Shown: positions 57,997 to 64,000 of the stretch, one piece after another
Numbering within the stretch: the first letter of the stretch is position 1
Layout of the letters: every line of letters starts with the position of its first letter
Origin: Chrysomallon squamiferum
Lineage: Eukaryota > Animalia > Mollusca
Assembly (NCBI GenBank): GCA_012295275.1
Contig: CM022676.1
Coordinates: 6,138,001-6,202,000, forward strand
Direction of reading: 5' to 3'
DNA: 64,000 bases
Position numbers and translations under genes: made by a program
Notes under the pieces: generated by a model
Seen by the model: the letters and a program-made list of their open reading frames with translations, nothing else
Databases searched by the model: none
Told to the model about the DNA's origin: nothing

Positions 57997-58129
57997 TCAG
58001 TATCGTCCATGACGGTCTCTTGAGCGCGACCTTCGTCGGTCCCGGCTCCGTGACCTTGACCTCCGATCTCTGCTTCTCGACCTTCTTCTGTCTATCTCTC
58101 GCCTTGTAGGTGGTGATCGCGACTTAGAT
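57997..58129 (-). CDS. U2AF1: U2AF1 last coding exon, RS domain ([44 protein letters not shown])
   Basis: Acceptor TTGTTTTCAG|, phase matches the previous exon, RS/RD dipeptides, TGA at 57999..57997. Confidence 0.94.
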
Positions 58130-58456: not shown

Positions 58457-59007
58457 CAGTCAGTGAAGGAGGGATAAAAATTGAATAATAGAGTAAAGGA
58501 CAGATAAAGAGAGACAGACTGAATGAGACTGAGTAAAAGAAGGGATGAGACAGACACAGAAAATGAAGAAGACAGAGATATCCAAGTTTTGTGTTTGTAA
58601 ATCTTAACAAACTTCTCCAGTCCTGCAATTCCTGGGCCCTCACAGATTTCAAAAATTTATAGTCCCGATGGCCGTGAATGTCACGTTAATATCCCGAAAA
58701 TCTTCTTTTTGTCTTAATTTACGTAACTGAAACATACACAGAGTCAATGGGGGAAAAAACAAAATAAAAATAGAATAGAATAAAACTAATTCCTGCCTGT
58801 ACCGTTTCTTTCTTCTTCTGCCATAGAGTTCTCGTCTGAGTTCTCTTGATATAGGCTTCAAGTGCATGAAGTTGCAAAAACCACCTCTAGTGCATTCACT
58901 GAAAATTTTCAATCATTTGTAATACAAAAACGTCATCAGAATCCTAATGCTTTTCAAAAGTTGGGAGTTTCTTGTTTAGAAACTGAACACATTTATATCA
59001 TACACTG

Positions 59008-59041
<34 letters not shown>

Positions 59042-62000
59042 AATCCTTCGATCCCTGATGTATATAATGATGATCTAGGCTTCAAAGTGCCCAGAAAAAA
59101 AAAAAATAATAAAATAAAAAGTAAAAAAATTAATTTGTTCAGTTTTTAAATCTGTGGTTGGTTAAAATAAAATACAAAGGAATAGCCTGGCCTGTTTAGT
59201 GGTCAACTGGAATAGTGGTCCAGCATGCTTGACCACTAACGAGGCCAGGGCAGTTCTAAGGATTAAACAAAAAGAAGTAAAAAAAAAAAATAAATAAAAA
59301 AAAAAATAAATAAATAAATAAATAGAAGAAAAAAAAAAAAAAAAAAAAAAAAATTAAATTAAAAAGATATCTTTTCTTTGAAGAAAAAATAAAACAAAAA
59401 CCCACCAAAATAATATAAATTTTAAAAAAATGACACAAACAAAATTTCGTAAAATAAAAAATTAAAAAATAACTAACTATACCACCCGAGACATTTTTTT
59501 GTCCTCAGTGATCTGTAACTTCAACAACACCAAAACACACACACACATATATAATAAAAAAAATAAAAAAACAACAGACATGACAAAACAGAAAGCCTAA
59601 GAACAAGACATTTACTGCACTATCTACCATCATACCCCATCTCATACTGTCTGCAACAAGCTTCTCGGAAATCAGTCACAGGAGAGAGTTCAGCGTGGAT
59701 TGGTCGGCCATTAAACCACCGATTGTTCAAATCTGCGACAGCTTTTTCAGCATCCTCTTCGTAACGATACTGAAATATAAATTATTTATGATTAACTTAT
59801 ATTAAAAGATTTATAATTATTTAATTTTTAATAAAAAAATTTTAATAAATACCTGTAATATTTCTAATAACGGTTAATGGATATCTAACATTTTAACTTC
59901 TACAATGATAGAAACTGATTACTATGATAATAAATTATTTTTACTGATTAGGAGCAATATATATTTTTTTATACGCCTTCTCATATACAGGACAATGTGA
60001 AAAAGATCAGTGTGTACACAACTGAGAACAGATCCTGAAACCATCCATGTGAGGCAAGAACTCTAACCAATGACCTAAAGTCTATTCTTTTCTCCATGTT
60101 AAAATATTATACATAAAGCCCATTCTTTTTGCTATGTTAAAACATTTATACATTACACTTTAATCCAACAGCATTTTTATCAACTGTATAATGTCCTCAA
60201 ACACTATTCATAACACTTCTGTCATCAAGGGCAATTATTATGAATAATTGAAAAATAGAATTTATAATCATCAAAAAAAAAAAAAAAAAGTAATAAATTA
60301 AAATAATTCACTGGACTGCTGAATACTGATAGACAGTAGTGCATGAGAAATAATGGAACGAAAAATGGAACTGTCATAACAAGAAAAAAAATAAATAAAT
60401 AAAAAAATATATATATATATATAATAATTTAAAAAAATTAAAAGGAAGGTATTTGCAGTTAACACATTGAACCAAGACAAACAATAATCCACTGCAACAA
60501 TGCAACCCAAAGTACAGATACATGATGTAATTTTCTCAAAAGATCAGTTTATAAAATTAATTTTTTATTTTAAAAAGTCACTGTACCTTGACGTAGACGT
60601 TGCCAACAAGATGGTCACCAAGGTTGTCACAAACATTCATCTCTTCAATTTCACCATACTGAAAAAAATAAAAATAATATAATAATAAAAAAAAAAATAT
60701 ATATATATATAAAAATAGAATATACATCATATTCATTATCACAATATCAATATATATTTCTTAAATGTTTTTTTTAAAAACACAGCTAGAACTCTTTATA
60801 AAACAGAATGAAATTTCTCTCCATTTCAAAAAATTACTCTTCATTTTGTTTTTCAAGGAAAAATATCTAAATCCTTTCATGAAATGACTGAAGCAAATTA
60901 TTTAATATTAAATCCTTACCTTCTTTGATTCCATTAAATTAAAAAAAAAATTTACATATATATTTAAATCCACTCATAAAATTATAAAATAAACTTATAA
61001 ACTGGATTTAATCTGGTCTATTTTTTAAAACTGTTATAACAGTTTTAATAAATAACTGAGATGTATTTATGGTACATTTTATCCTATATAATTAATATTA
61101 AATGGGCTGATAATACTTTAATTTATAATTACACAGTCATCTTACAAGATAACATACTTCATAGCTTAATTAGACGGTAATATTTTACTTCATGATTTGA
61201 TCATAAAGCCATATTTTACATATTTGCTCAATTTCAAGGTAATATTTTAAACTATATCTTTATTATAAAGTAATATTTGCTTCAGTGCTTCATTATAAGA
61301 ATATTTTACATCATGGAATGATTGTAAGGTCTCTGCTTCATTGTAATGTAACAATTCTATGAATAACAAATAACAAATCTGCATCTTGCGCTGATTAACT
61401 CAAAAATATAAAAAAATAAAAAGTCCTGAAAGCACAATAAACTTCTTAATAACAGACTTATATCATCAGCTGTTATCACACACATATAATTTATCAGACC
61501 TGTAACTAAAAGAAATCTTCTGTGTTTTATTAATAACCTTTACGTTCAAAGGATACGCCAGTTATACCATTCAAAAACACAATATACCTGTTAAAAAGTT
61601 TCTGCTGAAATTTAATTTGCTGTTATTAAGTAAAAATCTATGGTTTTACGAATCATTTTCTAGGAGAACAAAACATTTATTGTTTTATATACTGTTTGCA
61701 GTACCCAGATGATATTCAAAACCTAATTTTTAACTATCGTAAGTTTTAAACATCTGACACATTAACTGATAACTATTATTCAAAAATTACTAAGGAAATC
61801 TGGTTATTTAAAATAAAAATTAATATAATAATAATAATAATGTACGATATTTTATTTTTTTAACCAAACCAATAAAAAAAACCCATTCTAATTTATAATT
61901 ACATTTGTGAAATCAAAAATCTGTGTAAAACATTTAAAAAAACAAATTAAATTTTAAAAAATCTTTGGATTCTTAAATATATGTCCAAAACAATTTTAGT

Positions 62001-62634
62001 AGATAAATATTCAAATTACTTATTAACATTATTTTTTTTTTGTCAGGCAACAAATATGAATAAAACAGAACAGAAAACGTTACAGATCATATATACTGTA
62101 CATATTTTTAGTTACAAATGAAACGCTAGATGTATTATGAACTTTGCCATTCTTAAATTATAACAACCATGACACAAAAATCTACATTTCCAGAACCAAC
62201 CAGTTCTCACTGAAAAATAAAACTGTGTAAACACATCCTCCTTATGAACCAATTACCAGAACTGAGATAGAAACAGAAAAACCCAAACAAAGATTAAAAA
62301 ACAAACAAAACGTACGTCAGATGAACATCAAGCTGCACATTCTTTTTTTTTTTTCTTTATCTGAAGATATACATGTGCTCATTTTTCTTTTTTATATATA
62401 TATATATATATACACACAGTACAAATTATTTTTACAACAACGGTGCAGTCCAGAGCATATTAGGAGGTCAGTTTATAGGACTGAAATAAAGATGATGTAA
62501 CCAGATACCTTTTCCATTTCAACATAAACCTCTTCAAAGAATTCATCGTAGTGCTGTTGTATTTCAAACTCATCCATTTGGACTACAATGAAGCAGGAAA
62601 CAGTGTTTATTCACATTTGACCAAGTTGCACAAA

Positions 62635-62670
<36 letters not shown>

Positions 62671-63612
62671 TTTTTTTTTTCAAAATAAAAATTTTCATTA
62701 AGTGCACGCCTTGCAAAATGTCAGCATGTTTATCGACAGATGTATTCTTCAAGTTTTTAGAGAACATATCAGTAAAAATGTAAAAAAATTTTACCTGAAA
62801 AGGTAAAATTGTAAAATTGAATTTATATCACATTTTTTTTTGGTTTAATGTACTTTGCTGGATGTACAATTTAAAATTTGTAATCTGAGATATGAACATG
62901 ATCCAAATTTCGAAAAATTAATGAAAAGCGGTATAAAGAGAATTTATTGTTATTTTTAAGATTATTTCTTTCCGTTCAAAACTTGAAAAACACAGCCATG
63001 TTGAAACGACATGCTACATTTGCCTTGTTCTTCTGCCTACTCTGAAAAGTAAGGAAGAAAAAAAAAACACAACACCATAATCAGAAAGAAGCACTTGCAC
63101 GAAGCCCAGGTTAAATCATTCCTTTGTGAAGAGTTTTGCTTTATCACACAGCCATCTCTGATTCGACAAAATGGTTAAAGAATACATTCTTATCTTTAAA
63201 AAAATAAATAAAGCATCCTTTTATTTTTATACTTATAAAACTCCATTTTAAAAATGGATAGAAAAAAAAACAGAAATATATAATTTCTATCCAAAAAAAG
63301 ATAATAATTAAATATACCGTTAGAACAAAAAATTTTTTACGACCACTTTACATTCAAATTCAAAAAAAAACTAAACACCATCATCTTCGACACCCACAAC
63401 AGTCAAAAATAATTTAACCCTGACTAACGCAAGTGCTTATTTCCGTAGTTTACATGGACCAGTTTGACATACCATGGCCGACTGACTACAGAGTACTGGC
63501 CCTGGGTGTATAAATTCAGGATCTAGGTGCATTACCTTGTCCTCGAGTTCCGTAAATACCTCCTCAAAAAAATCGTCGTACTCTTGTTGTGCCTCCACCT
63601 CATCGACAACAA
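57997..63612 (-). CDS. U2AF1: U2 snRNP auxiliary factor small subunit (U2AF35), 5'-partial; join(63612..63536 OR 62582..62509, 60658..60587, 59769..59636, 58898..58803, 58129..57997)
   Basis: The spliced translation has the UHM ([32 protein letters not shown]), the second CCCH zinc finger ([21 protein letters not shown]) and an RS domain; all junctions are GT-AG with matching phases. Confidence 0.97.
58803..58898 (-). CDS. U2AF1: U2AF1 exon (96 nt; [31 protein letters not shown])
   Basis: Acceptor TTTTCAG| and donor CG|GTACAG; end of zinc finger 2. Confidence 0.96.
59636..59769 (-). CDS. U2AF1: U2AF1 exon (134 nt; [45 protein letters not shown])
   Basis: Acceptor ATTTCAG| and donor GG|GTATGA; RWF UHM signature and start of zinc finger 2. 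Confidence 0.97.
60030..60082 (-). mobile_element. tRNA-derived SINE head remnant
   Basis: Reverse complement gactttaggtcattggttagag...ggtttcaggatct aligns to 21925..21971. Confidence 0.45.
60587..60658 (-). CDS. U2AF1: U2AF1 exon (72 nt; [24 protein letters not shown])
   Basis: Acceptor TTTTTTTCAG| and donor AAG|GTACAG; near-invariant U2AF35 peptide. Confidence 0.97.
62509..62582 (-). CDS. U2AF1: U2AF1 helix-A exon, variant B (74 nt; [25 protein letters not shown])
   Basis: Acceptor TTTCCTGCTTCATTGTAG| and donor AAG|GTATCT; open frame, same entry and exit phase as variant A, retains [10 protein letters not shown]. Confidence 0.88.
63536..63612 (-). CDS. U2AF1: U2AF1 helix-A exon, variant A (77 nt; [26 protein letters not shown])
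   Basis: Acceptor ATCTTTTATTTCAG| and donor AAG|GTAATG; homologous to the human segment [25 protein letters not shown]. Confidence 0.92.
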
Positions 63613-64000
63613 CTGAAATAAAAGATCTTCACTAAAACCTCAAGTTCCAAGCAACAGATCACAGAACTTAAGAGAGTTAACAAACAATTTTTTTTTGTTT
63701 TCCTTACACACCTCAGTATATACCTACCTTTTAACAGCAGGAAAGTAATAATCTAATTTTTTTTTTTTTTTTTTTTTTTTTTCTTTTACAGGTTCTTTTC
63801 AGATTTTTTGTTCAGTTAAAGAGAAATCATGGCTAATATCCCTAATATAATAACAAAACAGTTTAAATGGGAGCTATTTAAAGTTAAAATACTTTTTTTT
63901 TTTTTTTTTTTTTTTTTGGTTGTACCGATTCACTGATAGGTTAATATATATCTTTGAAATTTCCAAATGACTGGTTTCTTTCTTAATATACTCCAACCTC

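Follow-up and report, generated by a model that had tools for sequence, protein, structure and literature searches.

Structure of the U2AF1 Locus

The window, which is the whole 64,000-nt stretch of Chrysomallon squamiferum DNA analysed here, carries on its minus strand part of a gene for U2AF1. This protein recognises the AG of 3' splice sites, and few splicing factors are more highly conserved. The exons upstream of exon A lie beyond the window end, and the first CCCH finger is not within the window. The features of the locus are as follows (window positions).

63612..63536, minus strand: exon A, 77 nt, flanked by TTTCAG and GTAATG, with AG/GT ends and an open frame; it encodes UHM helix A in its long form (residues 68-92 in human numbering)
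62583..63535, minus strand: A-B intron, 953 nt, with GT..AG ends
62583..62711, minus strand: AG-free zone 5' of exon B, 129 nt, with a U28 tract and candidate branch points predicted at -119 and -58
62582..62509, minus strand: exon B, 74 nt, flanked by TTGTAG and GTATCT, with AG/GT ends and an open frame; its product is the short form of helix A, with Y86 and V87 and without residue 91
60587..60658, minus strand: exon C, 72 nt, common to both forms; site of the early stop in forms with both or neither of A and B
59636..59769, minus strand: exon D, 134 nt, UHM RWF motif and start of zinc finger 2
58803..58898, minus strand: exon E, 96 nt, remainder of zinc finger 2 and helix alpha6
57997..58129, minus strand: last exon, coding portion, with the RS tail and the stop codon

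Downstream of A and B, the U2AF1 reading frame is completed by exons C, D and E and the last exon. Exons A and B are each stop-free in the phase-1 frame, leave in phase 0 and have a length of 2 mod 3. The first-pass annotation had described two homologous exons of 77 and 74 nt, 953 nt apart, with AG/GT ends and these phases, and we reproduced both the coordinates and the frames. When aligned with one codon gap, the two exons are identical at 47 of 72 nt, and their 24 aligned codons comprise 8 identical, 6-7 synonymous and 9-10 non-synonymous ones, the range reflecting the placement of the gap. A and B are adjacent homologous exons with the same phases, as expected of a tandem duplication.

Gigantopelta aegis RefSeq isoforms X1 and X2 contain the peptides of exons A, B, C and D without a difference (A in X1, B in X2), while the last exon and its RS tail are not the same as in the G. 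aegis protein. These two isoforms match 4YH8 (E ~1e-77) and 1JMT (E ~1e-49), indicating that the gene is a U2AF1 orthologue. Note that both isoforms are already annotated in RefSeq, with no comment attached.

Inclusion of A alone or of B alone keeps the frame open through exon D. On the other hand, inclusion of both leads to a stop 19 nt into exon C, and inclusion of neither leads to a stop 5 nt into exon C, in agreement with the earlier claim that both combinations shift the frame. Three junctions lie downstream of these early stops, and we infer that the both and neither forms are removed by NMD.

Separate Use of Exons A and B in RNA

Five sequencing runs contain part of the locus, of which four are RNA from one study and one is of unstated kind. 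Four runs were mapped on 62490-63640, and X5 gave no cover of either exon; the RNA evidence thus consists of contigs from three samples of one study, and contigs lose rare forms. The RNA contigs break exactly at 63612, 63536, 62582 and 62509 and then run into neighbouring exons, indicating that the exon pair is not a product of chance. The A and B forms share one upstream exon, whose end consists of the ALTADGSH codons and one further base. Upstream-A and upstream-B junctions were each found in X1 and X2. The first-pass annotation had proposed the downstream junctions as a check, and both were seen in the contigs: A-C in X3, and B-C in X1 and X3, as loose contig ends that match the start of exon C. 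No A-B joint was listed in the three RNA runs, as judged from contigs and with one X3 joint row at a repeat left out. Skipping of both exons is invisible on the mapped stretch 62490-63640. Taken as it stands, the mutually exclusive A/B exon pair itself is almost certainly real.

Contig depths of B and A were 20.4 and 29.7 in X2, 61 and 35.9 in X3, and 33 and 8.5 in X1, where 8.5 is that of a junction piece; the tissues are unstated and, since contig depth is a poor measure, these figures give at most a hint of a variable ratio. The A:B ratio may be regulated.

One X1 contig, 63029-63612, starts exactly at the A acceptor and extends past exon A into the intron that follows, while the region upstream of A is not covered. 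Given that no A-C piece was listed for X1, this contig may represent a partly spliced form. Although the intron after A seems to be retained in this run, we gave this no weight, because the intronic depth of 5-13 may come from pre-mRNA or DNA.

Intron Sequence and Choice between the Exons

Among the mapped runs, all 16 substitution rows and all 9 indel rows fell in the A-B intron, and none fell in A or B (binomial p = 0.08 for the substitutions alone and 0.018 for all 25). The 136 nt that follow exon A (63400-63535) are GC-rich, 43% as compared with 21-25% in several nearby intron blocks, and showed no variant in the covering runs; this segment is a candidate regulatory element.

AGs precede exon A at -16, -21 and -28, while exon B has its 129-nt AG-free zone. 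The zone and its U tract recall the long tract of the repressed human exon Ab. The constitutive exon C is also preceded by an AG-free zone, of 103 nt, so that the zone before B is weak evidence, and T runs are common in the DNA of the window.

Several other candidates were examined. Steric exclusion of A-B splicing is not expected from the distance of the candidate branch points of B from the A donor, which exceeds 800 nt. A pyrimidine-CAG/GTAAA motif at 62795/62794 on the minus strand, within the A-B intron, places an acceptor directly against a donor (the pattern occurs once on the minus strand and four times on the plus strand of the window), and no use of it as an exon site was seen in the RNA contigs. 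Likewise, no contig breaks at the strong-looking candidate acceptor 63043-63042 (minus strand), which lies in the same intron with a long pyrimidine tract. A search for docking/selector pairing yielded no pairing element, the 25 longest of 578 inverted repeats being A/T-rich low-complexity runs, and local RNA folds were not unusual (z of -1.13 and 0.38).

Residues Exchanged in Helix A

Human residue numbering can be applied, because the alignment of isoform A with human 1JMT (residues 43-146) is gap-free. A model of isoform B, which is of low confidence overall (mean pLDDT 55, with 70-82 over the helix), has a single helix at 71-90, within exon residues 68-91. The exon can therefore be equated with helix A, as had been claimed from the sequence.

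Nine residues (Q75, D79, F81, F82, E83, E84, E88, E90 and K92) are invariant in 13 of 13 A and 14 of 14 B segments. Position 86 is F in all 13 A segments and in 20 of 20 outgroup segments, and Y in all 14 B segments; residue 91 is missing in all 14 B segments and in B only. Position 74 is also fixed between the types, with a small residue in A (Ala or Gly) and a large one in B (Ile or Leu). Two positions are nearly fixed, namely 78 (F in 12 of 13 A, Y in 14 of 14 B) and 87 (T or C in A, V in 13 of 14 B). The previously noted FT versus YV difference and the shorter B thus held for F86Y and for the loss of residue 91, while position 87 turned out to be only nearly fixed. The N-terminal half of the helix carries further A/B differences at positions 72, 74, 77 and 78, and the mean net charge of the segments is -9.2 for A and -7.8 for B. 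At the E80-equivalent position, where a D/E difference had been proposed, A has D (11/13) or N (2/13) and B has E (11/14) or D (3/14), so this is not a fixed difference. We rejected D/E80 as a tuning residue, since the position varies within both types and is Ala in fission yeast.

In the complex from fission yeast, D79 and E83, which correspond to human E84 and E88, form the bonds to the tryptophan of the ULM (PMC4536312). The first-pass annotation had suggested that the exon switch may tune heterodimer affinity; because these tryptophan-contacting residues are the same in every A and B copy, altered core ULM affinity through acidic residues is unlikely. A change at a second interface, formed by alpha2, alpha6 and the large subunit, appears more plausible from residue patterns and the yeast structure. 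The same source describes alpha6 as packing along alpha2, with I125 and W128 of the large subunit buried against both helices, and labels in its interface figure, taken with the legend, include F81, C82 and F84, that is, human 86, 87 and 89 (PMC4536312). By analogy, the fixed A/B differences include one that maps to the face meeting alpha6 and the large-subunit extension in fission yeast. The yeast alpha6 interface is also described there as poorly conserved in higher vertebrates (PMC4536312), and in UHMs generally, the acidic helix is the binding site for the basic tail of the ULM (PMC5113200). A literature search for residue-level text on human Glu80/Trp92 returned nothing useful.

Distribution of the Two Exon Types in Molluscs

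Sequences were sampled by three protein searches and two cluster look-ups, which cover protein sets rather than genomes. Class counts were made on hand-picked named proteins, in which long denotes the A-length and short the B-length helix end. By these counts, non-heterobranch gastropods had 3 long and 7 short segments, bivalves 12 and 20, and cephalopods 2 and 4, respectively. The chiton contributed one segment, which was short, and no A was retrieved from it; heterobranch snails had 16 long and 0 short segments. None of 23 named non-mollusc proteins had the short B form (21 by pattern, and 2 judged long by inspection). When the pattern was applied to all 246 retrieved proteins, 137 long and 59 short segments were found; the 28 short segments outside the named list consisted of 15 further named mollusc entries and 13 unnamed, mollusc-B-like ones.

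Both types were present in 15 mollusc species, which were chosen for having both, and in 10 of these they appear as separate single-exon models. All seven isoform pairs compared differ in the helix A exon only. Many species were retrieved with one exon type only. A metagenome scan of 80 loci gave 70 long and 2 short helix ends, with 8 unparsed; the 2 short ones showed 60-65% identity and were not B-like, and no mollusc genomic locus with both exons was among the 80. The first-pass annotation had proposed a search across lophotrochozoan genomes; the pair is conserved in relatives, and in the retrieved data it is specific to molluscs and not lophotrochozoan-wide.

Gene models with A and B in tandem were found in six species (Nucella, Mya, two Mytilus, Magallana and Tegillarca). 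Several of them contain apparent intron read-through, and the tandem models are probably annotation errors. One of them, Mytilus californianus X2, is a RefSeq isoform, so that other species may include A and B together in frame by means of a shifted acceptor. Exon B of this window has no AG at the corresponding position.

Isoforms of octopus, oyster and snail carry 1-4 extra residues just before helix A, which points to microexons or to further slight shifts of splicing at this junction. In the ribbon worm Lineus longissimus, residues 50 and 53 are the sole differences between RefSeq X1 and X2. Both fall in the upstream exon, the one duplicated in vertebrates, and either a third independent duplication or the annotation of two alleles may lie behind them.

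Age and Origin of the Duplication

A tree was built from 55 distinct 24-residue segments, and with only 24 columns its bootstrap values are unsettled; it recovered the B segments as one clade (96/91) and the A segments, those of heterobranchs among them, as another (98/95). The two exon clades span gastropods, bivalves and cephalopods, and B also occurs in the chiton. Separate duplications in each class were rejected by the AU test (p = 0.020 with the gastropod copies together, and 0.022 with both octopus copies together). Segments of the same type share 82-83% of their residues, as compared with 59% for A against B. These two orthologous clades, with both types found across classes, uphold the earlier claim of an old duplication in which both copies were kept. 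Judged by the segments, the duplication likely occurred before crown molluscs, which is the simplest reading because the derived deletion of B is present in the chiton and the ancestral length is kept in A. We take such a date to be Cambrian or older.

The 16 heterobranch segments all belong to the A type, which suggests that at least one large lineage can do without B. Bradybaena and Lymnaea each have two paralogous U2AF1 genes with A-type segments, and the same seems to hold for Bulinus and Biomphalaria. One heterobranch paralogue has V87 and often E80, like B. Exon B was possibly lost in heterobranchs, with a gene duplication that followed or accompanied the loss.

Comparison with Known Systems

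The closest counterpart is the vertebrate pair of exons 3 and Ab, which, like the mollusc pair, are tandem UHM exons of the same gene with a length that is not a multiple of three (PMC5224494). The vertebrate pair also gives a stop when both or neither are included, is kept over a whole large clade and touches helix A/alpha2. However, the vertebrate 67-nt pair ends where the mollusc pair begins. The duplicated exon here encodes residues 68-92 and not the RNP2 region of the 67-nt exon, and the exon equivalent to the latter is common to both mollusc forms, being joined to A as well as to B; the pairs are thus not orthologous, and the claim that a different exon is involved was confirmed. The vertebrate pair dates to jawed vertebrates (PMC4494069). 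Because it concerns the preceding exon and has this age, the mollusc and vertebrate pairs have separate origins, and the earlier suggestion of convergence is supported as far as separate origin is concerned. The vertebrate exons differ by 7 substitutions at equal length, whereas the mollusc exons differ by 9-11 substitutions and a one-residue deletion, and the whole helix is replaced.

The fission yeast U2AF23-U2AF59 complex (4YH8) offers a second comparison, since the alignment of isoform B with U2AF23 needs no gap at the end of helix A. 4YH8 and 1JMT each represent one single form, whereas molluscs obtain both lengths from one gene.

Tandem duplicated exon substitution in general resembles the mollusc case in being ancient, with conservative changes and binding residues kept, and convergent origin in orthologues is common for such events: 54 human genes (25.2%) with such an event have fly orthologues that also have one (PMC9741552). 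That source stresses ion transporters, whereas the mollusc case concerns a core spliceosome factor, and a search of its main text for U2AF gave 0 matches. We found no description of the mollusc U2AF1 exon pair in the literature, in which subscription journals were poorly covered.

Interpretation

As the best explanation, we propose that the U2AF1 exon for helix A underwent a duplication that likely preceded the split of the major mollusc classes, and that each copy is spliced in separately to give two proteins. Both are predicted to use one and the same tryptophan pocket for binding U2AF2, and A and B likely differ in how helix A packs against alpha6 and the N-terminal extension of U2AF2. Such altered packing would tune heterodimer stability and 3' splice-site choice. 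The combination of an unchanged pocket and an altered second interface is favoured by the invariant pocket residues, the fixed differences, and the yeast and human interface data. With regard to the latter, PMC5224494 reports that the difference in expression between U2AF1 a and b in human cells depends on U2AF65 and on alpha2/alpha6. We assign this explanation as a whole, namely a swapped helix A with the same pocket and altered U2AF2 packing, a probability of roughly 0.55. Its functional step, in which the fixed residue changes would alter packing, stability or target choice, we regard as an even bet on residue comparison and analogy.

The invariance of the core pocket residues would also fit with two nearly interchangeable proteins, the pair being kept mainly as an NMD-coupled feedback dial on the level of U2AF1. 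Early stops in the both and neither forms are what such a dial would use, vertebrate U2AF1 employs NMD on products of this kind (PMC5224494), and the long AG-free zone of B with its U tract resembles repressed human exon Ab. However, a frameshifting cassette would suffice for level control without two conserved coding versions, and the two types keep their own fixed residues over three or four classes, at the 82-83% within-type versus 59% between-type identity given above. We consider this reading unlikely, although it deserves attention. A somewhat different possibility is that the exchanged residues act on partners other than U2AF2 through the N-terminal half or outer face of the long helix, as several differences lie in the N-terminal half (72, 74, 77 and 78) and the mean net charge differs between A (-9.2) and B (-7.8). 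U2AF1a and U2AF1b of mouse and human do have distinct interactomes and different splice-site preferences (PMC6821156). Against this, the most strictly fixed changes, 86 and 91, sit at the C-terminal end near the large-subunit interface, and we think it improbable that other partners explain the pair.

The tandem models in six species and the many species with one type only might suggest that one copy is a dead duplicate, or that A and B are normally co-included. In the RNA contigs each exon is joined exactly at its ends, and no A-B joint is listed. Including A and B together shifts the frame of the gene in this window, and both types are conserved across classes. The RNA contigs largely refute such readings, which we hold to be barely credible.

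To return to the swapped helix A with a shared pocket, a broader version can be put forward tentatively from sequence and analogy, and we would sooner doubt it than rely on it. Helix A may have served as a regulated two-state switch since before chitons, snails, clams and octopuses split, retuning the heterodimer and its 3' splice sites by tissue or stage. It would then be a functional convergence with vertebrate a/b through the neighbouring exon, with B having the helix-end length of fission yeast and with heterobranchs having replaced the switch by gene duplication.

The mollusc pair is real, expressed and ancient, and exon pairs of this kind are already known; tandem exon events are well known and convergence among them is common, which limits the surprise. 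The pair can be tested in oyster and octopus, for which tissue RNA-seq exists. It differs more than the vertebrate pair but with the tryptophan pocket intact, and so amounts to a natural experiment on the role of the long helix A. That one domain acquired an either-or switch twice independently, the mollusc one being likely the older, suggests that U2AF is preferentially tuned in the region of helix A.
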